In this document: one piece after another, positions 2,230-32,739 of the stretch | How the letters are laid out: the number at the start of each line of letters is the position of its first letter | Position numbering within the stretch: the first letter of the stretch is position 1 | Source of the DNA: Peptococcaceae bacterium | Lineage (GTDB): Bacteria > Bacillota > DSM-12270 > Thermacetogeniales > Thermacetogeniaceae | Length of the DNA: 33,464 nt | Assembly (NCBI GenBank): GCA_003132605.1 | Contig: PKYJ01000028.1 | Span: 1 to 33,464 of the forward strand | Direction: 5' to 3' | Program-made: the position numbers and the translations under genes | Notes under the pieces: generated by a model | Database searches by the model: none | What the model was told of the DNA's origin: nothing | Seen by the model: only the letters and a program-made list of their open reading frames with translations

Positions 2230-5200
2230 TTAACTCCCACTTCTAACGCGGGCACCCGGCCTCTCACCTCTCATTTCCACCGCCACCAGCTTGGAGATCC
2301 CTGGCTCTTCCATGGTGATGCCGTACAGAGTGTCTGCCGCCTGCATCGTCCGTGGACGGTGGGAGATGAGAATGATCTGGGCCTTTTCGGCCATCTTGCA
2401 CAAGAAATCCGCAAAGCGGACCAGGTTGGACTCGTCAAGGAACGCCTCGATCTCGTCGAGGAAATAGAATGGACTCGGGCGTGTCTGAAGCAGGGCGAAA
2501 AGAAAGGCGATCCCCGTCAGGGCTTTCTCACCCCCGGAAAGGAGGGACAGGTGGCGCGGTTTTTTCCCGGGGGGCAATACTCTCACATCGATGCCCGTGG
2601 TAATCAGGTCCTTCTCATCGGTCAGGAACAGCTCCCCCGTACCACCGTCAAACAGTTTGGCAAATACTATCTCGAAATTATGCTTGACCTCTGCGAACAA
2701 CTGGCGGAAGCGGCTTGCCACTATCTGGTCCATCTCCCTGATCACACCCTGCAGGGCCTTCCGCCCATCCTCCATATCCTCCCTCTGCTGCATCAGAAAA
2801 CTATGCCTATCCACCAGGGCCGCATATTCCCCCGGGGCGGCAAAATTAACCTCGCCGAATGTCCCCAGCCTTTCCTTGAGAGAGACGGCCTCTTCCTTCA
2901 TGCCGATCTCTTCCTGGCGCTCCAGCGGGGCGCCACCGGACACCTGGTCCAGGTCCAACTCCAGCGCCCTGGCCCTGACCTCGTCCAATTGCTCTTCCAG
3001 GTGCTGCGCCTGCGTCTCCAGACTGTGCACCTTCTGCTCGCGCTGCCAATTGAGGTGCTTGATCCGCAAATACCTTTTTTCCTTGGCGCGATAATAGCTC
3101 TCCTTGGTGCCGACCTGCTTCCTTCTGAAGTTCAGATCCGATTCGATCGCTGTTTTTCTGGCGATCAGAGTATCCAGCTGTCTTCGGGAGCGCTCTTTCT
3201 GCTCCTCGTAGCCGTTTATCTCATCAAGCAGGGCGTCCAGGCAGACCTCGACCTGGGTACGTTCCCGCTGCTGTTCCCCGATCAGGTTGTTTTCCTGCTG
3301 CGCTTTCTGCTCGAGGTACTTGATCTCCTGGTTCAGCGAGACCAGGTGCACTCTGCTTTCGGACAACTGGCTGTTCAGCCGGCGCACCAGCGCTTCACAG
3401 TCTTTCCTCTCCTGCTCTATCTGAAGGCGCCGCTGTTCCAGCCCGCTCTCATTCTCCAGCACCATGGCCAGGTCACGCCCGGTACGTTCGATCTCCTGGT
3501 CGAGATCGCCCCGGCGGTAGTTCTCCTCGTTGCTCTCCAACTGCCATTCCTGAGCATATTCCTGGAGCCTCTGCAACTCCCGGTTGCAGGATGCTATGGC
3601 CTGCTCCAACTCGTTGCGCTCTTTCTCCAGGACACGCTCCGCTGATTCCAGTTCTCTGATCCTGGCCGTGACCGAGTTCTGTTCCCTGCTCAGTGCGTCC
3701 CGCCTTTTCTCCAGCGCATCCAGAGCCTGCTGCCCGCGGCTCTGATCTTCGGACAACTGCACGATCTCCCGCTTCCGCTTGAGCGAAAACTGCGCCTGCT
3801 GATCCTCCCGGCCGCCGGTGATCAGGCCACCCGGTTGCAGCAGGTCTCCATCCAGCGTCACTACCCGTACCCTGTAATAGTTGGCTTCCGCAAACTGCCG
3901 GGCCTCCTTCATGCTGCTGGCAAAAAAAGTGCGACCCAGCAAAAATTCGGCTACATTCCGGTACTGATCGTCGCAGCTTACAAGTTCGGAGCCACGCCCC
4001 AGGATCTCGGCGCCATGAACGTACTTGGGAGGATGTTCCCTTTCCAGCCAACGTTGCAGCGCAGACAGCGGCAAAAAGCTGGCCCTGCCGATCTCCTTCT
4101 TTTTCAAAAAAGCCAACGCCTGCTGGGCAACATCCGGAGAAGCGCAGACAAAGTAGTGGGCGGCCCGCCCCAGGGCGGTAAAGAGTGCGGTCTCATACTC
4201 CCGGGAGATCGTGAACAGTTCCTCGACCATACCGAGGATACTGCTGCAGAAGGCCTCACCCCGGTCTCTGGCCTGGAGGATCCCCCGCACCCCCTTCTGG
4301 TAGCCGTCCCGGTTTTTTTCTGACTCCTTTATCATCTGCAGGCGGGTTTTGCAACGCTCGTTCTCCTGGACCTGCTTCTGAATCGCCGGGGCGATCTGCT
4401 CCCGTTCCCTGCTGATGCCGGACGCTCTCTGCCGTGCCTGTTCAAATTCCAAAGTGTTCTCTGCCAACGCAGCAGTCTTGGTCTGCAACAACCGGCCTTT
4501 TTCCCCAACCTGTTCCCTGATCTGGCCGATCCTGGCGGTATTTTCGTCAGTCTTCTGCCCGAGGTTTTCCTGTTGCCTGCGGGCAGTCTCGTTCTTATTC
4601 TGGAACTCCTTGACCTGACTGGCCAGCAGGGTCTTCTGGTGCAGCACTTCAAAAAGTTCTCCGTTATTTCTTTCCCACTCGTCGTTGACGCGCTGTCTAG
4701 TCTTTTCCCCTTCTTCCAGGGCCTGTTCCAACTCCAGGCAGCACTGCTCGGCCAAAACCTTCTGTTCACGGCACTGCTGGTGCTGATTGGCAATCTGCTG
4801 CATCTCCGAAGCGATCTCCTGATCCTTCTGGGCGATCACCTGCAGTCGGCCCCCCAGTTCCGCCTGACGCGACTGGGAGGACGAACATTTTTCTTCGATC
4901 CGGGCTAATTCGACCTGCGCCTCCTGAAGCTGCTGCCGGACCTGCCCAGCCTCCTGCTCGCGAGTGGCAAGCCGCTCCTTTCTCTCACTGATGCCCTGAT
5001 CCAAGTCGCTCAGTTCACACTCCATCAGGCCGGCCTTGGTTAGGGCTGTTTCCTTGCCAGCCTGTAAATCCTCAATGCTTGAGGCAATCGCCTTCTTTTT
5101 AGCCGCCGCTCTGGCAAACTGGTTCCCGACCAGCCTCGCTTCCAGCCCTTTCAGCCGCTCCTGACACTCGTTGTATTGGTTGGCTGCCTTGGCCTGCTCC

Positions 5201-6137: not shown

Positions 6138-6190
6138 CTATCGCTCTTATCCTGCCACTTCGAAGAAGCGGGTGATATTAGAGCAGGTAA
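6138..6190 (-). repeat. degenerate solo copy of repeat module A (see 29151-29273), reverse orientation
   Basis: CTATCGCTCTTATCCTGCCACTTCGAAGAAGCGGGTGATATTAGAGCAGGTAA aligns by eye to the reverse complement of 29161-29212 (GTAGCCGCTCTTATCCCACCGCTTCGAAGAAGCGGGGGTATTAGAGCGGGTA) with several substitutions. It is intergenic, between rnc and spoVS. Confidence 0.6.
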
Positions 6191-6286
6191 TCCTCGGGGA
6201 AATATATCAGCTCATTCAAGTATATTTCGACCGTTAGCTAAAAATTCCTGCTCAAGCTCAGGTCCAAGTGCTCAATATCTGCTTTA

Positions 6287-6970
6287 TTATACAGGCCTGT
6301 TTAGCAATTTTAAAGCGTTCTTGGCGGCCTGTTGTTCCGCCTCCTTTTTGGACTTCCCGCTGCCCCTGCCCAGCATCCGTCCGTTGCAGAGCACCCCTAC
6401 GGTAAAGTGCTTGTCATGGTCCGGCCCAGCCTCGTCGATGATACAATAGGCCAGGGTATCCCCTCCCCGCTGCTGAACCACCTCCTGGAGAGCAGTTTTA
6501 TAATCCCGGCCACTGCCCCGGGCAATGGTCAGCATCTCCTCGCCCAATAGCAGCAGCAGAAACCGCCGGGCCTGCTGCCACCCTTGATCAAGAAATACAG
6601 CACCCGTCAGGGCCTCCAGAGCATCCGCCAGGACTGAGGCCCGCGACCGGCCGCCTGACAGTTCTTCTCCATGGCCCAGCCGTAAATAACTGCCCAGGTC
6701 CAACCTCCTCGCCATTCTGGCCAGGGTCGATTCGCAGACCACCGCCGCCCTCATTCTGGTCAACTGGCCTTCGGGCTCTTCTGGAAAGCGGTGATAAAAA
6801 TAATCGGCGACTACCAGGCCCAAAACGGCATCACCCAAGTATTCCAGCCTCTGGTTGTGATTATTGGCCTGTGGATGCTCGGCCAGATAGGATGGGTGGG
6901 TAAGAGCGGTGAGCAGCAGTTCCGGATCCTTGAAGGAAACAGCGGTCGCCTGCTGCAACTTGTCGGGCAT
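6287..6970 (-). CDS. rnc: ribonuclease III
   Basis: Contains the signature NQRLEYLGDAVLG and a C-terminal dsRBD (GPDHDKHFTV...GSGKSKKEAEQQAAKNAL). The ATG at 6970 (MPDKLQQ...) has AAGGG upstream and gives a normal N-terminal length. The track's longer start at 7006 has no SD but is coupled to a mini-ORF (see findings). Confidence 0.9.
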   Translation of the reverse strand: MPDKLQQATAVSFKDPELLLTALTHPSYLAEHPQANNHNQRLEYLGDAVLGLVVADYFYHRFPEEPEGQLTRMRAAVVCESTLARMARRLDLGSYLRLGHGEELSGGRSRASVLADALEALTGAVFLDQGWQQARRFLLLLLGEEMLTIARGSGRDYKTALQEVVQQRGGDTLAYCIIDEAGPDHDKHFTVGVLCNGRMLGRGSGKSKKEAEQQAAKNALKLLNRPV

Positions 6971-7070
6971 TGCCTGCCCTTGCTTGGGTTTTCGCGAACT
7001 CGTCATTAATAACTGGCACTAACCTCGAACATCGAGCAGGCCTTTCTCCTTTTTTAAAATATGGTTTGGT

Positions 7071-8324
7071 TCAACCTTCAAATTTTTTAAAGACCAGCAC
7101 AGCATTATGTCCACCAAAACCGAAAGAGTTGGAGACCGCCACCCTCACTGGACACTGACGGGCCTGGTTGGGCACGTAGTCCAGATCGCACTCCGGGTCT
7201 GGCTGCTCATAATTAATGGTCGGATGCACCCAGTCCGTGCTGACAGATAGGGCGCAGGCAATAGCCTCAAGGGCGCCCGCGGCGCCCAGGGAATGCCCGA
7301 TCATGGACTTGGTGGAACTGACCGGTACCTTATAGGCGTGGTCCCCAAGCACCTTTTTGATGGCCAAAGTTTCGATCTTATCGTTAAGTTCAGTGGATGT
7401 GCCATGAGCATTGACGTAATCCACCCGATCAGGGGAGATCCCGGCGTCTTCCAGGGCGATCCGGATCGCCCTGGCCGCCTCGGTGCCCTCAGACTCTGGA
7501 GCAGTGATGTGATAGCCGTCGGCGGTGCACCCGTAACCGGCCACCTCGCCATAGACCCGGGCGCCTCTCGCCGAAGCGTGTCCGAGAGTCTCCAGCACCA
7601 GGACCCCTGCCCCCTCGCTGATCACAAACCCATCCCTGTTCTTGTCAAAGGGGCGGCTGGCACGCTGCGGCTCATCGTTGTTGGTGCTCATCGCTTTCAT
7701 GGAACAGAACCCCGCCATGGCAACGGGCACGATGGGGGTTTCGGTGCCTCCCGCCAGAACCACCTCTACCGCTCCCCGCTGGAGCATCAGGTAAGCCTCC
7801 CCGATAGCGTTGGTGCCTGAGGCGCAGGCCGTCACCAAAGTGATGTTGGGTCCCTTCGGCCCCAGGCAAATGGCGATCTGGCCGGCGGCCATATTGCTGA
7901 TGATCATCGGGATGAATAAAGGACTGATGCGGTTGGGCCCCTTGTTGAGCAAGACGCTGTGCTGCTCGCAGAGGGTTTCGATGCCGCCGATCCCGGAGCC
8001 GATCACCACCCCGATACTTTCCGGATCCTCTTCGCCTATCTCCAGCGCTGCATCCCCAACTGCCAGTTTGGCCGCAGCAACACCGAACTGGGCGAAACGG
8101 TCCATCCTCCTGATCTCTTTCCGTTCCAAAAACTGTTCCGGCACAAAATCCTTGACTTCTCCGGCGATCTTGCTGTCGTATGAGGAGGAGTCAAACCGCG
8201 TCAGACGGTCAATCCCCGACTGTCCCCGCAAAAGCGCTTGCCAATAAGCCTCTTTCCCTATCCCGACAGGAGACAGCACGCCCAGACCGGTAATCACTAC
8301 TCGCTGCTTGCTCTCCGGCAACAT
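7071..8324 (-). CDS. fabF: beta-ketoacyl-ACP synthase II
   Basis: 417-aa ORF with KAS I/II hallmarks: active-site ...TACASGTNAIG..., ...NAHGTSTELND..., ...SNSFGFGGHNAVLVF. Confidence 0.95.
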   Translation of the reverse strand: MLPESKQRVVITGLGVLSPVGIGKEAYWQALLRGQSGIDRLTRFDSSSYDSKIAGEVKDFVPEQFLERKEIRRMDRFAQFGVAAAKLAVGDAALEIGEEDPESIGVVIGSGIGGIETLCEQHSVLLNKGPNRISPLFIPMIISNMAAGQIAICLGPKGPNITLVTACASGTNAIGEAYLMLQRGAVEVVLAGGTETPIVPVAMAGFCSMKAMSTNNDEPQRASRPFDKNRDGFVISEGAGVLVLETLGHASARGARVYGEVAGYGCTADGYHITAPESEGTEAARAIRIALEDAGISPDRVDYVNAHGTSTELNDKIETLAIKKVLGDHAYKVPVSSTKSMIGHSLGAAGALEAIACALSVSTDWVHPTINYEQPDPECDLDYVPNQARQCPVRVAVSNSFGFGGHNAVLVFKKFEG

Positions 8325-9424: not shown

Positions 9425-10396
9425 TTAAACAGTTCCCCCCGTTTGCGCAAGCACCTTTTCCAATGTTTTTTCGTCCTCGACATGGTCTACCCGGCACCCT
9501 GGCAGGATCCTCCTGATCAGTCCGGACAACACCTGGCCGGGGCCAACTTCCAAATAGTCTTTGAACCCCTCGCTTGCAAGTCTTTTTACCGACTCCTCCC
9601 AGAGCACCGGCGAGCTTACCTGGGCAGCCAGCAGGTCTTTGATGACGCCCGGACTGGATACCGCCTCCCCGGAGGCATTCATTACCAGAGTTACTTTGGG
9701 TGCGGAGAAGGTATACCCTTGCAGAAACAGCCTCAGGTCTTCGCTCACACCGGCCATCAAAGAGGTGTGAAAGGCGCCGCTGACCGCCAGCGTGGCAACT
9801 TTTCTGGCCCCCCTGCGGCGGGCCTCGGCGATGGCTTCATCCAGGGCCGCTCTCTCGCCGGAGATCACGATCTGGTTTGGGGCGTTGAAGTTTGCCAGTT
9901 GCACCACCCCCTTGGTTCCGGCCACCAGGCATATTTCCCGCACCGCCTCCTGCCCCAGACCGATCACGGCAGCCATGCCCCCCAGTCCGGAGGCAGCCGC
10001 CCGGTCCATCAACTCAGCCCGCTTGATCACGATCTCCAGGGCCGCAGCGAAGGATAGCACCCCAGCGGCGACCAGGGCCGTGTATTCTCCCAGGCTGTGG
10101 CCTGCGGCGGCCTGGCAGGTGACGCCGGACTCCTGCAGCACTTTCATGATGGCGATACTTGCCGTAAAAATTGCGGGCTGGGTGTACTTGGTCCGGCCTA
10201 ACACCTCTGCCGGCCCCTCGGCGCAAAGCTGCAACATCTGGTACCCGTCAACCTGCCCGGCCTGCTCGAAAACTTCGGCCGCCACCCGGCGCCGACGGAC
10301 GAGTTCGATACCCATGCCCACATACTGGGATCCCTGTCCCGGAAAGACGAAAGCCAGACTCAAATCACGACCGCCCTCCCATCCTCTCACTACCAT
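9425..10396 (-). CDS. fabD: ACP S-malonyltransferase
   Basis: Motifs AFVFPGQGSQYVGMG and the active-site GHSLGEYTALV. The start is uncertain. ATG at 10396 forms ATGGTAG with the stop of the fabH relic. TTG at 10363 (MSLAFVFPGQ) has GGGAGGG upstream. Confidence 0.9.
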   Translation of the reverse strand: MVVRGWEGGRDLSLAFVFPGQGSQYVGMGIELVRRRRVAAEVFEQAGQVDGYQMLQLCAEGPAEVLGRTKYTQPAIFTASIAIMKVLQESGVTCQAAAGHSLGEYTALVAAGVLSFAAALEIVIKRAELMDRAAASGLGGMAAVIGLGQEAVREICLVAGTKGVVQLANFNAPNQIVISGERAALDEAIAEARRRGARKVATLAVSGAFHTSLMAGVSEDLRLFLQGYTFSAPKVTLVMNASGEAVSSPGVIKDLLAAQVSSPVLWEESVKRLASEGFKDYLEVGPGQVLSGLIRRILPGCRVDHVEDEKTLEKVLAQTGGTV

Positions 10397-10643
10397 CTTA
10401 TTGTGCAGGCTGCCCAAGTCAATCCCGCTCCGAATGTTGACAGCACGACTACCACCCCTCCCTCACCAGGCCCTGATCCACAGCTTTGGACAGGGCCACG
10501 GGGCAGGTAGCGCCTGAGAGGTTGCCGTATTTCTCAATATTGACAAATACCTTGGACTCCGGCAGCCCCAGCCTCCGGCGCGCCGCTTCGATGATCCTCA
10601 GGTTCGCCCCAGTGATCCGTACCGGTCTCAGCCCTTCAGGATT
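10390..10643 (-). pseudogene. fabH: relic of beta-ketoacyl-ACP synthase III (C-terminal ~85 codons only, frameshifted)
   Basis: Frame A (10449-10643): NPEGLRPVRITGANLRIIEAARRRLGLPESKVFVNIEKYGNLSGATCPVALSKAVDQGLVREGW*. This resembles the FabH region ..HQANLRII....LGL...KV..N...YGNTSAASIP.AL. Frame B follows a -1 shift in a G-run: VVVVLSTFGAGLTWAACTIRW*, a FabH-like C-terminus. About 240 N-terminal codons, including the catalytic Cys, are absent. The His of HQAN is replaced (ITGAN). Confidence 0.65.
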
Positions 10644-11637
10644 CATGGCCCTGTTTCCACTCCTTCTGCAAGGATTCGACAAGGTTCTCTTTTACTGCTT
10701 TCGCTGTATAGCGGACGGCATTTTTAATGGCGCGGGCGCGGGAGGAACCGTGGCAGATCACGCTCAACCCGTTTATACCGAGCAGCGGCGCCCCCCCGTA
10801 TTCTGTGTAGTCCATCCTGCGAAAAATGTCGCCGAAGGCTGGCTTCACCAGCATACCGCCAAGCATCCGCAGGGGGTTCCGCTTCAATTCATCCCTGATC
10901 ATTCCGGTAAGGGTGGAGACGATCCCCTCAGCCAACTTCAGGGCAATGTTGCCGACAAAACCGTCGCAGGCGATCACATCCACGTCGGCGGTCAAAAACT
11001 CCCGCCCCTCGACATTGCCGGCAAAGTGCAGATCCCCGGCCTCAGCCAGGGCTTGATGGGCCTCGATGACCGCTCCGGTTCCCTTGGTAGCCTCGCTGCC
11101 CACACTGAGCAGGGCAACCCTGGGGTTGCCGATGCCCAGCACCTGCCTGGCATAATGGCTGCCCAGGTAGGCGAACTGCACCAGGTGGCTCGCCTTAGCA
11201 TCGACATTCGCTCCAGAATCGATCAGCACCTTGGGCCCCTTGGGAGACGGAAAAACGGTGGCGATTCCCGGGCGTTCGACGCCGGGCAGCCTCCCAAATT
11301 CGAAAAGCGCTGCTGTCATCTGAGCTCCGGTATTGCCAGCCGAAATGACAGCGGTTGCCTCGCCCTCTTTAACCAGCCTGGTAGCCACGACCAATGATGA
11401 GTTCCTTTTCCTCCTGACTGCGGACGCCGGGTGCTCATCCATGCCGATGACTTCTTCAGCGTTTCTGACGGTGATTGCCTCGCTGGGATAGCGGTACTTT
11501 TTCAGTTCTGCCTCTATCAACTCCTGATGACCGACCAGGATCACCCGGGCAAAACCACTGTTGACCGCGTTGACAGCACCCTTTATGACCTCCACCGGGG
11601 CATGATCGCCCCCCATGGCATCAACGGCAATGCTCAC
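10636..11637 (-). CDS. plsX: phosphate acyltransferase PlsX
   Basis: 333-aa ORF MSIAVDAMGGDHAP...; the fapR-plsX-fab synteny supports the call. Confidence 0.95.
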   Translation of the reverse strand: MSIAVDAMGGDHAPVEVIKGAVNAVNSGFARVILVGHQELIEAELKKYRYPSEAITVRNAEEVIGMDEHPASAVRRKRNSSLVVATRLVKEGEATAVISAGNTGAQMTAALFEFGRLPGVERPGIATVFPSPKGPKVLIDSGANVDAKASHLVQFAYLGSHYARQVLGIGNPRVALLSVGSEATKGTGAVIEAHQALAEAGDLHFAGNVEGREFLTADVDVIACDGFVGNIALKLAEGIVSTLTGMIRDELKRNPLRMLGGMLVKPAFGDIFRRMDYTEYGGAPLLGINGLSVICHGSSRARAIKNAVRYTAKAVKENLVESLQKEWKQGHES

Positions 11638-13308: not shown

Positions 13309-14652
13309 TTACTGACCGGGAACCTTGGCCTGGGCCTTAGCCATCTCCGGCTTCTTCTGGAGCTGCTTCTCCAGCTCGTCGTCACGCTGCTTGTTCTGGT
13401 ATGCCGGGTCCTGGAAGGAGTATTTGAAGTTGGTGTGCACGTCGTAGGTTCCGTTCATGATCGCGATCGTGTCTTCCACAATGATGAGTTCCTCGTCGGT
13501 GGGAATGACGAAGATCTTGACCTTGGAATCCGGCGCCGAGATATCGGATTCCATGTTCCTGGTGCGGGCTACCTTGTTCTTCTCGGGGTCGAACTTGATG
13601 CCCATGAACTCCAGGCCCTCCAACGCCTTGGCCCGGATGTCCGACGCCATCTCGCCCACACCGGCCGTCCAGACGACGGCATCGATGCCACCCACGGCTG
13701 CACTGTACGCGCCGATGTACTTCTTGATCCGGTAGGTCTCCACCTCGAAGGCCAACCTCGCCCTGGCGTCGCCCTTCTCCGCAGCCTCAAGCACGTCGCG
13801 GCGGTCGGTGTACTGCCCGGTGAGGCCCAGCAGGCCGCTCTTCTTGTTCAAGGTGTTGTCCATATCCTTCGGCGAAATGTTCTCTTTCTGCATCACGTAG
13901 AAGTCCAGGGCGGCGTCGTGGTCGCCGGCCCGGGTGCCCATAACCAGGCCCTCGAGCGGGGTGAAGCCCATGCTGGTGTCGAAGGAGATCCCTTTCTTGA
14001 CGGCGTTGGCGCTCACGCCGTTGCCGATGTGCAGGGAGACCAGGTTGACGTCGAAGGGGTCCTTGCCCAATAGCACCGCTGCCCGCTTGGCCACGTACAG
14101 CAGGGAGGTGCCATGGAAGCCGTAGCGGCGCACCCGGTACTTTTCATACCAGGCATAGGGTACGGCATACATATACTGCGGAGACAGCATCGTCTGGTGC
14201 CAGGCGGTATCCATCACCGCCACGTGGGTCACGTTGGGCAACATTGACTGGGCGGCCTCGATGCCGAGGATGTTGGGCGGATTGTGCAAGGGCGCCAGAG
14301 CCTGCAACTCCTTGAAGGTATTCAGCACTTCCGTGTTAATCTTGACTGACTTGATAAAATTCTCGCCGCCGTGCACCACCCGGTGTCCGACAGCGTCAAT
14401 CTCCTTGACGTTCTTCAAGACGCCGTGCTCCGGGCTCACCAGCAGGTCGAGGATCAGGTGCACCGCTTGCGTGTGAGTCGGACAGTCGTGCGCGATCTTG
14501 ACGGCGTCTCTTCCTGGCACTTCGTGGACGCAGAAGGATTCCCCGATGGTCACGCGCTCGACGATACCCTTGGCCATGATCTCCTTCTTTTCCCAGTCGT
14601 AGACCAGATACTTGGCAGAAGAACTACCGCAGTTCAGAACCATAATCTTCAT
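13309..14652 (-). CDS. ackA: acetate kinase (with ~45-aa C-terminal extension)
   Basis: MKIMVLNCGSSSAKY..., HRVVHGG, FHGTS, IPTDEELIIVEDT. The ATG at 14652 has GGAAGGGGAAG upstream. The track's start at 14694 is less likely. Confidence 0.9.
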   Translation of the reverse strand: MKIMVLNCGSSSAKYLVYDWEKKEIMAKGIVERVTIGESFCVHEVPGRDAVKIAHDCPTHTQAVHLILDLLVSPEHGVLKNVKEIDAVGHRVVHGGENFIKSVKINTEVLNTFKELQALAPLHNPPNILGIEAAQSMLPNVTHVAVMDTAWHQTMLSPQYMYAVPYAWYEKYRVRRYGFHGTSLLYVAKRAAVLLGKDPFDVNLVSLHIGNGVSANAVKKGISFDTSMGFTPLEGLVMGTRAGDHDAALDFYVMQKENISPKDMDNTLNKKSGLLGLTGQYTDRRDVLEAAEKGDARARLAFEVETYRIKKYIGAYSAAVGGIDAVVWTAGVGEMASDIRAKALEGLEFMGIKFDPEKNKVARTRNMESDISAPDSKVKIFVIPTDEELIIVEDTIAIMNGTYDVHTNFKYSFQDPAYQNKQRDDELEKQLQKKPEMAKAQAKVPGQ

Positions 14653-14702
14653 GTTTCTTCCCCTTCCCTTTTTATAATATGTTATTGCCTTCAACGATTG
14701 CC

Positions 14703-15728
14703 TTAGTACGGAACCATGGCCTGAACCGCCACGATGGCCGACACGTTGGCAATATCCTCGGCTTTGCAGCCGCGTGAGAGGTCATTGATCGGCTTGGCCA
14801 GCCCTTGCAGCAACGGGCCATAGGCCTCTGCGCCGGCAAGGCGTTCCGTCAACTTATAGGCGATGTTTCCGGCGTTGAGGTCCGGGAAGATCAAAATGTT
14901 GGCCCGTCCCGCAACCGGGCTCCCCGGCGCCTTCTTACGCCCGATCTCCGGAACGAGGGCGGCATCCCCCTGCAGTTCCCCGTCGATCAGCAGGTCCGGG
15001 CGCTTCTGGTTGGCGATCTTGGTGGCCTCGATCACCTTGTCCACGATCGGATGGGTGGCGCTGCCCTTGGTGGAATAGGAAAGCATCGCCGCCCGGGCTT
15101 CTGGCACGCCAAAGATGTTCTTTATTGTGATGCAGGTGGTAATGGCGATCTCCGCCAACTCTTCCGCGGTGGGGTTCGGGTGTCCGCCGGAATCCGCATA
15201 GAGAAGGAAGCCATTTTCGCCGTATGGGCAGTTGGGGATGATCATGGCGAAATAGGCCGAGGCAATGGAGATCCCCTTGGCTGTCTTGAGGATCTGGTAG
15301 GCCGGCCTTTCAACATCGGCAGAGGTGTTGACGGCCCCAGCCACCATCCCATCGGCATCGTCGAGTTTAATCGCCATTACCGAGAAGTAGATCTTGCTCT
15401 TTAAAAGCTGCCTGGCATCACCGATCGAGGCGATCTTGCCTTTCCTGATCTCAAAGAGCTTCTCCGCATACTCGTCGATCCGGTCGAATTTCTCGTGGTC
15501 CAGCACCGGTATGCCGTCGATGTTCACGCCGGCTTCCTTGGCCTTCTTTCTAACCTCGTCATCCTTCCCGACCAGAACAATTTTGCCCAGTCCTGCCTCC
15601 TTAACCAGTTCCGCAGCCCTGAGAGTGCGTTCATCTTCCGTTTCCGGCAGGTAAACTGTCTTTTGTCCCTGGCGTGCCTTTTCCCAAACATACTCCATAA
15701 TAGCATTCTTGGGTGCAAACTTCGCCAT
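14703..15728 (-). CDS. pta: phosphate acetyltransferase
   Basis: 341-aa PTA_PTB family protein (..VYLPETEDERTLRAA...MVAGAVNTSADV...SYSTKGS...IFPDLNAGNIAYK). The pta-ackA pair supports the call. Confidence 0.9.
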   Translation of the reverse strand: MAKFAPKNAIMEYVWEKARQGQKTVYLPETEDERTLRAAELVKEAGLGKIVLVGKDDEVRKKAKEAGVNIDGIPVLDHEKFDRIDEYAEKLFEIRKGKIASIGDARQLLKSKIYFSVMAIKLDDADGMVAGAVNTSADVERPAYQILKTAKGISIASAYFAMIIPNCPYGENGFLLYADSGGHPNPTAEELAEIAITTCITIKNIFGVPEARAAMLSYSTKGSATHPIVDKVIEATKIANQKRPDLLIDGELQGDAALVPEIGRKKAPGSPVAGRANILIFPDLNAGNIAYKLTERLAGAEAYGPLLQGLAKPINDLSRGCKAEDIANVSAIVAVQAMVPY

Positions 15729-19249: not shown

Positions 19250-19458
19250 AGAATAGGTAATGGCTAAAGGGTCTTCATGGGAAAGGAACTTGATACCAGA
19301 CCTGCAAAGACGCAGCAAGGATTACAGCTAACCTTTCTCGTGAGCTCTTCCTCCAGTTTCTCCTCTCCCACGCCATTGAGTGCGTCTTTACTTCGGTGAG
19401 CGCACTCAGTGGCGACGCTAAACCGAACCATAAGCAGCCGGCTGCTTATGGTTTTTTT
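19250..19458 (+). ncRNA. candidate small RNA (5' end not defined)
   Basis: A 19-bp UUCG-capped hairpin (19371-19414) has three G-U pairs that would be A-C on the other strand. A strong plus-strand intrinsic terminator follows. A CU-rich stretch CTCTTCCTCCAGTTTCTCCTCTCCC lies upstream. There is no convincing ORF. No known RNA family was recognised. Confidence 0.3.
19426..19458 (+). terminator. intrinsic terminator (strong on the plus strand; may also serve the convergent 86-aa ORF)
   Basis: AACCATAAGCAGC-CG-GCTGCTTATGGTT followed by TTTTTTT on the plus strand. On the minus strand the stem is followed only by CGGUUUAG. Confidence 0.7.
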
Positions 19459-19706
19459 ATTTCCGGAGCCAGCAGCCTGGCCCCAAACCCGCGCTCCTGC
19501 AATATTCCCCTAATCTTCTGCAGCGCTTCCTTGATGCCGTTGATTGTTGCTTCCAGGCTTATACCGGTGCTGGAGATACGTATGCCAGTCCGGCGCAGGA
19601 GGTACTGGCGTCCCTGTTCCAGGTTCTGCAGTTCACCCCTCAGCCGGTCCAGTTCTTTCATCAGGTCTTCACTGTTCATACGGGAATAGCGCCTATCTTT
19701 TGACAT
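19446..19706 (-). CDS. hypothetical small coiled-coil protein
   Basis: 86-aa ORF MSKDRRYSRMNSEDLMKELDRLRGELQNLEQGRQYLL... has protein-like charged/helical composition, unlike the overlapping plus-strand ORFs. GAAGGAG lies 15 nt upstream, a long spacing. No family was recognised. Confidence 0.45.
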   Translation of the reverse strand: MSKDRRYSRMNSEDLMKELDRLRGELQNLEQGRQYLLRRTGIRISSTGISLEATINGIKEALQKIRGILQERGFGARLLAPEIKKP

Positions 19707-19823
19707 CAGTCTTCCGTGTTACTCCTTCATCCTGGTTCATGCCATAAGTTTATCATGAAATCCTCATCAACGCTAAATGACTTGCGACACAAGGGGCATA
19801 TAAAGCGCAACCTCAGCTTTTAA

Positions 19824-19853
19824 TTGTCTGGACACCCGTGTTTATGTTAAAAT
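19824..19853 (+). promoter_or_regulatory. putative sigma-A promoter with extended -10
   Basis: TTGTCT-18 nt-TAAAAT, with TG one nt upstream of the -10 (TGTTAAAAT). It lies ~130 nt upstream of the SD+ATG at 19988. Confidence 0.45.
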
Positions 19854-19987
19854 CAACCTAATAAAGCTCCTTCTTTCCCCAATCCACATCAATGCAACTG
19901 ACTCTTCGTCAACTCCTTTTCACTTGCCCTGATTCCCTTGTCGCTCTGTAGGTTCACCTTAAAAAATTAAACCAGGGAGTGATGATA

Positions 19988-20327
19988 ATGGATATATATC
20001 CCTGAGCACCGTGACGATGACCTGTGCGCTGATTGCGGCGGCAAATGCTGCCTGATCTACGGCCCGTCTCAAAACCTGAAGCGGCAGAGACTGCATGAGG
20101 ATGAAAAACATCTCTTTGGCGGTGGTCACTATCTGGAATATGGCGTTGACCCGTTGTCCGAGAAGATACACCCGCATGCCTGTGAATACCTGGGATTGAA
20201 TGGATGTATCATTCCCTGGGAAAGACGGCCGCCGATCTGTAAAAATTACCGCTGCGGCATATGGCGCGATCTGACCAATAGGCAAAAAAAGTCCGGCAGT
20301 CGCCATCTGCCGGTTAAAGAAAAGTGA
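19988..20327 (+). CDS. YkgJ-like CxxCxxCC-type cysteine-cluster protein, interrupted (+1 shift needed after codon 5)
   Basis: Not in the ORF track. AGGGAG-8 nt-ATG GAT ATA TAT CCC TGA. In the +1 frame from 20001, 108 open codons read PEHRDDDLCADCGGKCCLIYGP...HACEYLGLNGCIIPWERRPPICKNYRCGIW...VKEK*. This resembles the YkgJ/UPF0153 pattern (CxxC..CC ... C.FL..G.C.IY..RP..C..Y). There is no in-frame ATG or GTG anywhere, and the only in-frame TTG is about 50 codons in. Confidence 0.6.
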
Positions 20328-20340
20328 CAATAAGTTTAAC

Positions 20341-20372
20341 AAAAAAACTCCCGCCCCATTAGAGGCCGGAGT
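20341..20372 (-). terminator. intrinsic terminator (expression platform of the cobalamin riboswitch)
   Basis: Minus strand ACUCCGGCC-UCUAAUGG-GGCGGGAGU followed by UUUUUUU. The stem has one G-G mismatch. Confidence 0.65.
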
Positions 20373-20399
20373 AAAAAAACATTATCTATCAATGCTATC

Positions 20400-20575
20400 T
20401 TCTACCTGGGAAGGTACAACACGCCGTGCTTCCGGGCAGGTCTCCTGGCTCATGGCTCATTGCCCCGGCGCTGCCTTCCCGGATCAACTCCAGTGGCACG
20501 TTAGCGCTGGCTACCATTTACAGTGGCCGGACCCGCTCAGGTTTTTCACCTGATTCCCTTTTCCCGAATGCGACT
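20400..20575 (-). promoter_or_regulatory. cobalamin (B12) riboswitch aptamer
   Basis: The minus strand carries the conserved blocks GGGAATCAGGTGAAAAACCTGAGCGGGTCCGGCCACTGT, GTGCCACTGG...CCGGGAAGGC and the B12 box GAGCCAGGAGACCTGCC (20432-20451). Order and spacing match the cobalamin riboswitch consensus. Confidence 0.85.
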
Positions 20576-20624
20576 ATTCAGTTCTACTTTAACTTATCAT
20601 AAGCTTTCCGGTAAATCCAGATCT

Positions 20625-20819
20625 TTATACCTGAACCTGTTCCAGGATAACCTTGTGGTCGACCAGATTCAACTCCTTGATGTGCGCCTTGATCATCTTG
20701 CGCTGGCCAAAGATATTCTCCAGCACCAGGCCATCCTCATAGGGCAGCACGCTGTCCACATTCTCCATAAAGAGCTCATCCTTGTCATCCTTGCGCACAT
20801 AGGCATGTGCTTCGCACAC
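20625..20819 (-). CDS. CooT-family small protein (putative nickel-binding; formerly 'predicted RNA-binding protein')
   Basis: GTG at 20819 lies 6 nt after GGGGGTG and gives MCEAHAYVRKDDKDELFMENVDSVLPYEDGLVLENIFGQRKMIKAHIKELNLVDHKVILEQ. This matches the MCEANAY...NIFGE.K...I....L..HKI pattern of the CooT family as I recall it. The track start (20834) adds 5 residues before the conserved Cys2. Confidence 0.7.
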   Translation of the reverse strand: MCEAHAYVRKDDKDELFMENVDSVLPYEDGLVLENIFGQRKMIKAHIKELNLVDHKVILEQVQV

Positions 20820-20943
20820 CGGCGACACCCCCATTTATTTTGACTAAATTTTAAGCGGTTGATCTTCCATCCGATTAGGCATGATCCTGGTTTACCTCAG
20901 TCCTATTATAACATCAGGCTACCAACTGTTGCAGGTCTTCCCA

Positions 20944-21546
20944 TCATTGAGGTTCGTTTTTCGAAGTTGACACCTGATCGTAAAGCTCCTTGATCTTCTT
21001 GAAATCCTCCCACACCGGCTTCTTCTTGTTGGCATCCCTCAAAATGGCCGCAGGATGAAAGGTCGGGACGATCTTGATACCGCCCTTTTCATAGACATTG
21101 CCCCGAACCACGGTAATCTTGGCATCATTATGAACCAGGTATTGGGTGGACAACGCCCCCAGACAGACGATCAGGCGCGGCTGGATCAGTTCGATCTGCC
21201 TAACCAGGTAGACAAAGCACGCCTCCGCCTCATCCTTCTTGGGGATGCGGTTGCCCGGAGGACGGCACTTGGCGATGTTGGTGATGTAGACATCGCTGCG
21301 CTGAAGCCCCACCGACTCCATGATCTTCTCCAATAGTTGTCCCGCAGCGCCGACAAAGGGTTTCCCCAGGCGGTCCTCGTCGACCCCCGGGGCCTCTCCG
21401 ACAAACATCAACCTGGCATCCGGGGCACCGTCCCCGAACACCACACCGCGGGCATTATCCCTCAAACTGCAGCGGTGGCACTGCAGGCAATGCTGCTGCA
21501 GGTTGGCGAGGTCATCATATTGGTCGAGCAACGGCAGCCATTTCAC
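20944..21546 (-). CDS. udg: uracil-DNA glycosylase, family 4
   Basis: ..C..C.L......VFGDGAPDARLMFVGEAPGVDEDRLGKPFVGAAGQLL...ITNIAKCRPPGNR...HPAAILR is the family-4 UDG signature. Confidence 0.9.
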   Translation of the reverse strand: MKWLPLLDQYDDLANLQQHCLQCHRCSLRDNARGVVFGDGAPDARLMFVGEAPGVDEDRLGKPFVGAAGQLLEKIMESVGLQRSDVYITNIAKCRPPGNRIPKKDEAEACFVYLVRQIELIQPRLIVCLGALSTQYLVHNDAKITVVRGNVYEKGGIKIVPTFHPAAILRDANKKKPVWEDFKKIKELYDQVSTSKNEPQ

Positions 21547-31326: not shown

Positions 31327-32445
31327 TTATCTTCCGGCCTCCGACCTCTGCTCGGGGTATCCTGTGATCATCAGGTCGGCGCCTATTTTTTGGCACTCCA
31401 GTGCTGTGAGCTGCAACGCCTCGGCCAGGGTTGCCGCCCCCGCCCCCCCGAAGGGACCGGGGGCGCTGTTGCCGCCGATAATCCCGGGGGCGACAAAGAA
31501 GATAAACTTGTCGACGGCTCGCGCTTTGAGAAAGTTGGCATTCAGGAGACTGCCGCCTTCCAGGAGCAGGCTGACCAACTCCCGTCTCCCCATCTCCCGC
31601 AGTAGCGCCTGGATGTCTACCAGGCCATCAACTCCCGGCAGCTCCCAGACTTCCACCCCCCGTTCCATCAGCATCTCTTTCTTGCCGGGCGGGCATTGCC
31701 CCTCTACCACGGCCACTGCCGCCGGGTAATCCCGCGCCGTCTGCACCAACTGAGACTCCAGGGGGATTCTGAGGCTGCTGTCGGCGACCACCCGCAGCGG
31801 CTTCTTTTCAGCGCCCGGCAGCCTGACCGTCAGCAGGGGGTCATCCGCCAGCACCGTCCCTATTCCCACCAGCACGGCATCATTCTCTGCTCGAACATGC
31901 TGCGCCAGGTTGCGGGATTCAGGACCGGTGATCCACTTGGAATCTCCCGATCTGGTGGCGATCTTGCCGTCCAGGCTCATTCCGGCCTTGAGGGTGACAA
32001 AGGGTTGCCTGGCTACGATGTACTTGAAAAAAGCCTCGTTGAGGCGCCTGGCCTCGGCATCCAGTACTCCGGACCGCACTTCCAAGCCTGCCTGCTGCAA
32101 GGCCTGCAGGCCATTTCCCGCCATCAGCGGGTTTGGGTCCGGGGTGGCCGCGACCACCCTCTTGATGGCCGCTCTGATAATCGCCTCGGTGCATGGCGGT
32201 GTCCGTCCAAAGTGGCAGCAGGGCTCCAGAGAAACGTACAGGGTCGCCCCCCTGGCCCGTAACCCGGCTTGCCTGAGGGCGAGGATTTCAGCATGGGGCA
32301 TGCCCGCTTTATGGTGGTAACCCTCTCCCAGGACTGTTCCGTCGCTGACGACGACCGCCCCCACCATGGGATTGGGGCTGGTCTTCCCCTTCGCCAGCGC
32401 TGCCAGCTCCAACGCCCGGGCTATAAAGGCATGATCTTGATCCAC
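31327..32445 (-). CDS. ribD: bifunctional diaminohydroxyphosphoribosylaminopyrimidine deaminase / 5-amino-6-(5-phosphoribosylamino)uracil reductase
   Basis: Deaminase Zn motifs HAEILAL and LEPCCHFGRTPPC, plus a reductase domain. GTG at 32445 lies 7 nt after GGAGATGGAGG. Confidence 0.9.
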   Translation of the reverse strand: MDQDHAFIARALELAALAKGKTSPNPMVGAVVVSDGTVLGEGYHHKAGMPHAEILALRQAGLRARGATLYVSLEPCCHFGRTPPCTEAIIRAAIKRVVAATPDPNPLMAGNGLQALQQAGLEVRSGVLDAEARRLNEAFFKYIVARQPFVTLKAGMSLDGKIATRSGDSKWITGPESRNLAQHVRAENDAVLVGIGTVLADDPLLTVRLPGAEKKPLRVVADSSLRIPLESQLVQTARDYPAAVAVVEGQCPPGKKEMLMERGVEVWELPGVDGLVDIQALLREMGRRELVSLLLEGGSLLNANFLKARAVDKFIFFVAPGIIGGNSAPGPFGGAGAATLAEALQLTALECQKIGADLMITGYPEQRSEAGR

Positions 32446-32499
32446 GGCGCCGCCTCCATCTCCCAAGCTAACAACAGCCACCTGCGCCCATTATTATAA

Positions 32500-32728
32500 A
32501 ACAAAAAACCCACCACCTGGGAGGCGAGGGTTGATCAAGACCAGCACAAAGCCAGCATGAACAAGAGCGCCACTCTCCCATCCAGACTCTACTGTCGGCT
32601 CCGGATTCCCACCGGATCAGCCCTGCGCCTGCATCGTTTCACCGATCGCCGGTCCCGGGTTCGCGGGCTCATCCTCCTGAAGAGGCATCACCGCCGGTGC
32701 GGGAATCTCACCCGCCCCCCGAGGAACT
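32500..32728 (-). promoter_or_regulatory. FMN riboswitch (RFN element) with intrinsic terminator
   Basis: Minus-strand aptamer at about 32568-32728: CTCGGGGGGCGGGTGAGATTCCCGCACCGGCGGT...AGCCCGCGAACC...GGTGGGAATCCGGAGCCGACAGTAGAGTCTGGATGGGAGAG. A terminator follows at 32500-32532: AACCCUCGCC-UCCCA-GGUGGUGGGUU plus UUUUGUUUU. It lies upstream of ribD. Confidence 0.9.
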
Positions 32729-32739
32729 TCACAAATTTC

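Follow-up and report, generated by a model that had tools for sequence, protein, structure and literature searches.

What does a cobalamin (vitamin B12) riboswitch regulate when no gene follows it? The question is raised by a contig of 33,464 nucleotides (nt) from a Peptococcaceae bacterium of the family Thermacetogeniaceae (assembly GCA_003132605.1, contig PKYJ01000028.1; this whole stretch is referred to as the window), in which such an element lies on the minus strand between a cooT-like gene and a small convergent gene for a Cys-rich protein (the Cys gene). Thermacetogeniaceae/Peptococcaceae peat organisms depend on corrinoids. The locus is most likely a member of the known class of antisense-acting riboswitches, with the peculiarity of a tandem terminator; more specifically, it is proposed here, with a probability of roughly 0.4, that antisense transcription entering the Cys gene from its 3′ side is governed by a B12-gated terminator.

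A riboswitch with tandem terminators

An Rfam scan of the whole window placed a cobalamin riboswitch (RF00174) at 20418–20606 on the minus strand, scoring 89.9 bits against a gathering threshold of 31.5 (E=3e-21) and covering the full length of the model (positions 1–189). A previous interpretation made from the letters of the DNA without database searches (the sequence-only reading) had postulated a canonical B12 aptamer on this strand and had suggested checking its boundaries with the cobalamin model; both the aptamer and the position of its B12 box (GAGCCAGGAGACCUGCC, at about 20435–20451) were borne out by these limits. The orthologous elements of two related loci, L016 and L035, scored 100 and 96.4 bits, respectively. 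A consensus structure of four riboswitches (RNAalifold) contained 42 pairs, nearly all of which are kept in the four sequences and four of which have changed on both sides. In this consensus, the helix closing the aptamer joins UYCGGG (20563–20568; UUCGGG in the window) with CCCGGA (20433–20438), and the outer P1 of the Rfam alignment is mostly non-canonical. The predicted ligand is that of an adenosylcobalamin-type riboswitch. A 5′-leader position before a B12 gene is the typical context of RF00174, not a structural criterion.

Two intrinsic terminators follow the aptamer on the same strand. The first (T1; 20341–20372), presumed to be the B12-controlled expression platform, was called by the terminator scanner in the window, L016, and L035; as the sequence-only reading had it, a stem (20348–20372) is followed by seven uridines (20341–20347), and the hairpin of the window reaches −17.7 kcal/mol. 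Although T1 carries 4–8 substitutions, the energy of its hairpin stays between −15.5 and −17.7 kcal/mol across the three species. T1 is separated from the Cys stop codon (20325–20327) by 14 nt, and the geometry is alike in L016 and L035. The second terminator (T2; 20284–20313), which is new compared with the sequence-only reading (T1 alone), was called in all three species. It consists of the stem-loop CCGGCAGATGGCGACTGCCGG (20293–20313), a two-base spacer (AC), and again seven uridines (20284–20290); it lies 28 nt after T1 and overlaps the last codons of the Cys gene on the other strand. Its stem is invariant, including that of L015/L031, where T2 is non-coding and situated directly 3′ of cooT. 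T2 as a repeated element was ruled out, as it occurs once in the window and is confined to the cooT/Cys locus. Between the two terminators lies a 13-mer (ATTGTCACTTTTC; 20319–20331, minus strand) that the window, L016, and L035 share without a change and that no other locus of the comparison contains. Its complement holds the stop codon TGA of the Cys gene, and stop codon and 13-mer sit exactly between T1 and T2 in 3/3 species. The linker between aptamer and T1 (20373–20417, minus strand), delimited by alignment, holds the conserved segment GUGUUGUNCCUUCCCAGG, in which CCUUCCC is complementary to GGGAAGG of the aptamer core.

The sequence-only reading had found no clear promoter between cooT and the aptamer, a statement that has to be revised. 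A promoter-like site can be read at 20591–20619 on the minus strand, with TGGATT as the −35 element (20614–20619), a spacer of 17 nt, and TAAGTT as a TG-extended −10 element (20591–20596; TGnTAAGTT). In the window, the site is weak and falls below the threshold of the promoter scanner; at the same position in L016 and L035, the scanner reported TGGACA-17-TAAAGT with TG (8234–8262) and TGGACT-17-TAAAAT with TG (3152–3180), respectively. We infer that the riboswitch is transcribed from this site, with a predicted start near 20584, which fits a complete aptamer because the UYCGGG/CCCGGA helix, and not the outer P1, closes it.

The riboswitch strand lacks a coding target

The only minus-strand open reading frame (ORF) after the riboswitch, of 127 amino acids (aa; 19959–20342), starts at a TTG inside the U-tract of T1, as had been noted before, and uses the same triplets as the Cys gene. 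Within the same DNA, the Cys frame is 82–92% identical between species versus 62–75% for the antisense frame, and a Pfam search with the 127-aa product returned no family match. The ORF was therefore rejected as a target of the riboswitch and is regarded as a codon-aligned shadow, not a gene; the suspicion of the sequence-only reading that it is non-proteinaceous is thereby supported. The gene callers of the Joint Genome Institute (JGI) annotate the shadow ORF (115 or 127 aa; L001–L003) and miss the probably frameshifted Cys gene (see below); in the protein collection, the Cys family therefore shows up as truncated or wrong-strand proteins. As the minus-strand ORF is a shadow of the Cys frame, the riboswitch is not directly followed by a coding sequence that it could control. 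In all three species, the riboswitch strand carries only the antisense of the Cys gene from T1 to the next strong hairpin, and no gene for B12 synthesis, B12 transport, or a B12-independent isozyme was found on the sense strand after T1 and T2.

Candidates further downstream were also rejected. Read-through to an 86-aa ORF (19446–19706; orf86), as contemplated earlier, would not reach a conserved target, as orf86 is absent from the riboswitch-bearing L035. The rsmD-coaD genes were rejected since rsmD has a leader-like element of its own, a sub-threshold match to the ylbH leader (RF00516; 19315–19460, minus strand; 33.9 bits vs 50) directly upstream of rsmD (ylbH). This match overlaps a hairpin after orf86, and the hairpin persists in L035, which does not have that ORF.

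Conservation of the orphan layout

For comparison, 29 related loci (L numbers) were gathered from GTDB genomes and JGI metagenomes with CooT as the anchor. The orphan layout occurred in only three lineages, those of the window, L016, and L035, so that the convergent riboswitch/Cys arrangement recurs in three species by the kind of synteny comparison that the sequence-only reading had recommended. In the window (together with the same-species contigs L001–3 and L047–49) and in L016, cooT is followed by riboswitch, T1, T2, convergent Cys gene, orf86, rsmD, and coaD; in L035, the order is riboswitch, T1, an extra hairpin, T2, convergent Cys gene, and rsmD. L015/L031 carry T2, 70 nt, the convergent Cys gene, orf86, and rsmD, with no riboswitch. 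In L046, a short contig ending after the Cys gene, the gap of 34 nt before the convergent Cys gene leaves no room for a riboswitch. Only orf86 and rsmD follow cooT in L030/L033, and only rsmD in L032. Within the sampled clade, the riboswitch is thus present only where the Cys gene is: both in three species, the gene alone in L015 and L046, and neither in L030/L033 and L032. Concatenated nucleotide identities group the window with L033 and L032, and L015 with L016, with L035 outside. On this grouping, the presence of both riboswitch and Cys gene would be the most parsimonious ancestral state, from which the riboswitch alone would have been lost once, and riboswitch and Cys gene together once or twice. 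A search with the shadow-ORF protein for more riboswitch-bearing lineages returned only strains of the same species and the riboswitch-less L046.

Is the riboswitch of the three species still maintained? The aptamer core (20425–20560) is 95.6% (L016) and 92.6% (L035) identical to that of the window, compared with 77.6% (622/802) and 69.8% (301/431), respectively, for pooled four-fold degenerate sites of the neighboring genes (Fisher p = 8e-8 and 1e-8). The adjacent linker, with 79.5% (L016) and 65.1% (L035) identity, was indistinguishable from neutral and again significantly less conserved than the core (p = 0.002 and 3e-5, respectively). As the core is far above both references, the riboswitch is under selection and not a dead relic; judged from these substitutions, the aptamer is under purifying selection in its orphan state, over the whole divergence of the three species. 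Recent horizontal transfer as the cause of the likeness was ruled out, as linker and T1 of the same cassette have diverged at neutral rates. A selected aptamer with no following gene argues that non-coding outputs of riboswitches are real functions and not genomic debris.

The convergent Cys-rich gene

The gene lying tail to tail with the riboswitch (19988–20327, plus strand) was delimited by homologue clusters, codon-position identities, and frame analysis. Its frame is open from 19983 to the stop at 20325–20327 and encodes PEHRDDDLCADCGGKCC...CEYL...GCIIPWERRPPICKNYRCG; the Cys-cluster ORF ending at 20327, 14 nt from the terminator, is thus where the sequence-only reading had put it. The Cys residues are arranged as an N-terminal CADCGGKCC followed by ACEYL...GCIIPWERRPPICKNYRCG, with the C-terminal layout C...C..RP..C...C. 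Homologues of 63–84% identity form eight clusters in a collection of 5.8 billion proteins, some of them named “Fe-S-cluster containing protein” by JGI. Codon-position identities of the Cys frame were 89.7/99.1/76.6% versus L016, 91.4/90.5/70.5% versus L035, and 91.6/95.8/78.9% versus L015, a pattern typical of a gene under purifying selection.

The family assignment is less clear. Neither the Cys protein nor six homologues matched Pfam at E up to 10, including PF03692, and the Cys protein had no NCBIfam match. A profile search starting from it yielded 139 remote relatives, and 2/10 of those tested showed sub-threshold similarity to PF03692 (19.5–20.9 bits vs a cutoff of 23). The protein is thus predicted to be a distant relative of the CxxCxxCC proteins, by remote similarity only; what is left of the former label “YkgJ-like” is this kinship through remote relatives, not a match of the protein itself. 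Its AlphaFold2 model (predicted local distance difference test score of 52) was too poor to use. The C-terminal tail (RQKKSGSRHLPVKEK) is encoded across T2, and a tail of the type RQKxxGSRHLPVK(E/G)K is confined to the riboswitch-bearing species; L015 and distant homologues end in ...RR. For the Cys gene, the scanner reported a promoter-like site (TTGTCT, 18 nt, TG-TAAAAT) at 19824–19853 on the plus strand, with equivalents in L016 (9030–9002) and L035 (3945–3917).

Some distant homologues of the Cys gene lie near genes for corrinoid-binding proteins (PF02607/PF02310) and a GntR regulator (L008 234–872; L010 1–896 and 6725–9699; L011–L013), and at these loci they are convergent with a BtuF/FecCD-type ATP-binding cassette (ABC) transporter lacking a riboswitch. 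This neighborhood is a weak hint at a corrinoid-related role of the Cys protein.

Proposed mechanism and alternative explanations

The elements described are best combined in a free-standing unit of promoter-like site, aptamer, T1, and T2, which would have a non-coding output directed at the Cys gene. Transcription would begin just downstream of the cooT stop codon; as the source genome provides no separate terminator for cooT, transcripts from the cooT promoter would probably enter the unit as well. With B12 bound, RNA polymerase would halt at T1, 14 nt outside the Cys gene. When B12 is absent, T1 would be read through into the convergent gene, and most transcripts would halt at T2, giving an RNA extended by ~56 nt, the added part of which would be complementary to the final ~14 codons of the Cys mRNA and its stop codon; a smaller share may proceed beyond T2 across the gene. 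Scarcity of B12 would then lower expression of the Cys gene, either by an antisense duplex or by polymerase collision, following the logic of AspocR and pocR (see below). The sequence-only reading had suggested that termination gates an antisense transcript over the whole gene. A non-coding output of the antisense type is plausible, but a transcript covering the whole gene would have to pass the conserved T2.

Several observations weigh against this proposal. One is T2 itself, which is conserved and competent-looking where the antisense RNA would enter the Cys gene; a long antisense is therefore unlikely, and the two states may differ by only ~56 nt. A conserved antiterminator was not resolved when transcripts truncated before the 3′ arm of T1 were folded for the three species. 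What emerged were weak alternative helices from CCGG-rich segments, namely CCCGGA:UCCGG (5 base pairs [bp]), GCCGGGG:CUCCGGC (7 bp), and GGGAAGG:CCUUCCC (7 bp), and the z-score of the whole-region fold was only −1.5, which is uninformative. No intrinsic terminator was found on the plus strand after the Cys gene; the Cys mRNA may hence extend over the riboswitch RNA with and without B12 alike, making the B12-dependent difference less distinct. No connection of the Cys protein with B12 is known, the neighborhood of corrinoid proteins and a BtuF-type transporter at some homologue loci being the sole hint, and no cobalamin riboswitch was present at 13 loci of distant Cys homologues in roughly six, by another count eight, other genomic contexts. 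Finally, L015 and L046 keep the Cys gene without the riboswitch, and the co-occurrence of the two rests on few, phylogenetically linked lineages.

How do other explanations fare? The riboswitch may be the left-over leader of a lost operon for B12 uptake, having no target and serving now at most to stop transcription between cooT and the convergent gene or to insulate the two; the transport genes once following cooT would have been deleted, which would have brought the leader terminator T1 beside T2 as the terminator of the region end. L018 shows what the ancestral layout might have looked like: there, cooT is followed by a BtuF-like gene, a riboswitch (106.8 bits), a terminator, and an operon of the uptake type, encoding an ABC ATPase, an ABC-2 permease, an S-layer homology (SLH) protein, a 226-aa protein (13641–14321), and a 217-aa membrane protein (14329–14982), the last two without a family assignment. 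The short distance of 28 nt between T1 and T2 could be a deletion scar, T2 alone terminates cooT in L015, and the riboswitch was lost at least twice among close relatives and is therefore dispensable. However, the L018 riboswitch is only ~70% identical and may not be orthologous. The orphan layout is also older than the split of three species with 22–30% neutral divergence, during which the core changed by only 4–7%, and a bare stop signal would not preserve a ligand-binding core. Thus, the “dull alternative” of the sequence-only reading, a riboswitch orphaned by loss of its genes, may describe the origin of the locus but not the present state of an aptamer under selection, and as an account of the latter it is considered unlikely. 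A cooT 3′-untranslated region (UTR) element has even less in its favor. If the riboswitch were co-transcribed with cooT, B12 would set the 3′ end of the cooT mRNA at T1 or T2 and hence its stability; in agreement with this, T1 is the first terminator after cooT in the riboswitch-bearing species, whereas riboswitch-less relatives have one directly behind the gene, and a good extended −10 element (TGTTATAAT; 20905–20913) lies upstream of cooT. Yet, the cooT ORF would be intact and identical in the two isoforms, each of which would end in a stable hairpin, and most relatives have cooT without a riboswitch. Moreover, the positionally conserved promoter-like site between the cooT stop codon and the aptamer weakens the former assignment of the riboswitch to the cooT 3′-UTR, which makes this explanation quite improbable.

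The RNA could also act in trans, as a riboswitch-controlled small RNA (sRNA) of the EutX/Rli55 type, in which B12 would select a short form ending at T1 or a long form ending at T2, and the extra segment (13-mer and T2 hairpin) would have a protein or a remote mRNA as its binding partner. The promoter-like site, the aptamer, and the terminators without an ORF agree with such a role, as do the invariance of the 13-mer and the two discrete isoforms that tandem terminators would set. A permissive Rfam scan of 19300–21000, on the other hand, returned the riboswitch and the ylbH-like leader only and thus none of the known RNA motifs that bind proteins; conservation of the 13-mer and the T2 stem can also follow from terminator function and from the Cys coding sequence that overlaps them with its stop codon, and no trans target can be proposed. 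An sRNA is therefore regarded as rather improbable. Control of distal genes in sense orientation (orf86 or rsmD-coaD) by a very long leader is hardly credible: orf86 and rsmD-coaD do lie on the riboswitch strand, but two terminators and >600 nt intervene, orf86 is missing from L035, and rsmD has its own leader-like element and is unrelated to B12. The variant in which the 127-aa ORF is a real gene shares this low standing; gene callers do place this ORF (115/127 aa) directly behind the riboswitch, but its codon-aligned frame is far less conserved than the sense frame and has no family matches.

Comparison with known systems

A B12-gated terminator producing antisense RNA would not be without parallel. 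Two antisense-acting riboswitches have been studied experimentally, the cobalamin riboswitch of AspocR/pocR in Listeria and the S-box of ubiG in Clostridium acetobutylicum (PMC9943018), which would make the present locus a third candidate for this class, with unusually clean comparative evidence. As in Listeria monocytogenes AspocR (PMC9943018), a cobalamin riboswitch and its terminator lie at the 3′ end of a convergent gene without a sense target, and B12-bound termination would spare the gene, whereas read-through would give an antisense RNA. Unlike there, T2 stands at the entrance of the target and the antisense would probably cover only ~56 nt over the stop codon; furthermore, the target is a small Cys-rich protein known here from sequence alone and not a regulator of B12-dependent enzymes. 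The S-box antisense to ubiG-mccB-mccA of C. acetobutylicum (PMC9943018) is likewise a Clostridia-class case, situated 3′ of its target and acting by read-through of a terminator, but its ligand is S-adenosylmethionine (SAM), its target comprises an entire operon whose metabolic connection to the ligand is clear, and a tandem second terminator is lacking. The tandem T1–T2 arrangement therefore suggests a variant of the class in which a short 3′-overlap antisense is the regulated product.

In a computational survey, 292 functionally consistent antisense cases were predicted (Serrano-Gutierrez and Merino 2023; PMC9943018); cobalamin riboswitches were significantly enriched, with 190 in antisense orientation, and the survey has a category of uncharacterized ORFs. 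The geometry of those candidates is the same as that of the present locus, which would satisfy the survey's criteria, and the difference lies in the purifying selection on an orphan aptamer in three species and the pattern of loss among relatives. The source lineage was probably not in the survey set, as it consists of uncultured metagenome-assembled genomes. The locus would also tie B12 sensing to an uncharacterized Cys-rich family of uncultured Thermacetogeniaceae/Peptococcaceae peat organisms.

Two further systems can be compared. The T1–T2 segment (only the 13-mer and T2) contains no ANTAR-substrate motif, as judged by the permissive Rfam scan of 19300–21000, and in this respect it deviates from EutX and Rli55. 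In those sRNAs, which come from Enterococcus and Listeria (reportedly DebRoy et al. 2014 and Mellin et al. 2014, Science), a B12 riboswitch reportedly selects short or long isoforms, and the long form reportedly carries ANTAR-binding hairpins that sequester EutV. Listeria riboswitches are also said to terminate an upstream gene while still controlling a downstream sense gene (reportedly Toledo-Arana et al. 2009, Nature); here, T1 and T2 would end cooT transcripts as well, but there is no downstream sense gene.

A candidate +1 frameshift in the Cys gene

How is translation of the Cys gene initiated? The sole start with a Shine-Dalgarno sequence (GGGAG, 8 nt) is the ATG at 19988, which reads ATG GAT ATA TAT CCC TGA and is out of frame with the body of the Cys gene. 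The body lies in the +1 frame from 20001 and has no in-frame start, and the predicted shift site is TAT_CCC_TGA at 19997–20005. The arrangement ATG-N6-TAT_CCC_TGA with a +1-frame body is found in the window, L015/L031, L016, and L046, as well as in the divergent homologues L044 and L004/5; L035 and other Cys homologues are in frame. The CCC_UGA site and its five-codon leader are thus kept in at least three divergent lineages, with the reservation that a TTG start in the body frame of L004/5 offers an alternative to frameshifting there. Within the leader, only one codon differs (ATC in L016 for ATA), without changing the amino acid in the frame of the ATG, and according to the codon-position identities, purifying selection continues to act on the frameshifted Cys genes. 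A +1 shift at CCC_UGA has been documented for tail genes of Listeria phages, and in E. coli pheL the site shifts with 15% efficiency (PMC5009743). The sequence pattern thus argues that the Cys gene probably represents a new cellular case of conserved +1 programmed frameshifting, located at codon 5, with CCC_UGA as the predicted shifty stop. Its parts resemble the programmed frameshift of the CUU_UGA type in prfB, in that a shift-prone P-site codon, a stop codon, and a conserved +1 continuation occur together. Current gene callers appear to miss this probable frameshift and annotate the antisense shadow ORF instead.

The two ends of the Cys gene might be connected. A short, T2-bounded, B12-gated antisense over stop codon and tail could alter, through duplex formation or cleavage, the 3′ end of the Cys mRNA (e.g., to a non-stop message) and, together with the frameshift at codon 5, would amount to two stacked RNA controls, a doubtful idea as a whole. 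To our knowledge, a riboswitch-driven 3′-overlap antisense combined with translational recoding has not been described.

The cooT neighborhood and further observations

The gene upstream of the riboswitch (20625–20834, minus strand) matched the CooT family PF10133 with 84.9 bits (gathering threshold 27), in keeping with its earlier designation as cooT-like. The longest ORF begins with MGVSPVCE; a GTG at 20817–20819, preceded by GGGGGTG, would give MCEAH... and is the likely true start, with Cys at position 2, as expected for a nickel-binding CooT. The gene order RecG-SASP-SASP-GPR-UDG-CooT (UDG, uracil-DNA glycosylase) is kept in all close relatives.

Downstream of cooT, the relatives are more variable. 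Tandem duplications of 14–17 nt surround the cooT stop codon in L016 (8195–8240) and L035 (3115–3150), not in the window or L015, and just downstream of the duplications, GATCTGGAYTTA marks the point where all relatives diverge in content; this suggests a hot spot of recombination or slippage at the 3′ end of cooT. The cooT homologue of more distant relatives is followed by a SAM riboswitch (87 bits; L041 783–894; L042 6545–6662), and the region behind cooT seems to be a repeated location of units headed by a riboswitch.

Two peculiarities concern L018. The ABC ATPase gene after its riboswitch is split over two overlapping frames (10152–10886 and 10489–11007), either by a frameshift or by an assembly error. 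In addition, its uracil-DNA glycosylase gene (6179–7831) contains an insertion of ~355 aa inside the conserved NIxKCRPPGN motif, which begins with Cys (CLNGYTG...) and ends with ...VVHN followed by Cys, all of them hallmarks of an intein. Elsewhere in the window, a flavin mononucleotide (FMN) riboswitch (RF00050; 83 bits; 32566–32730, minus strand) lies just upstream of a minus-strand ORF (31327–32481).

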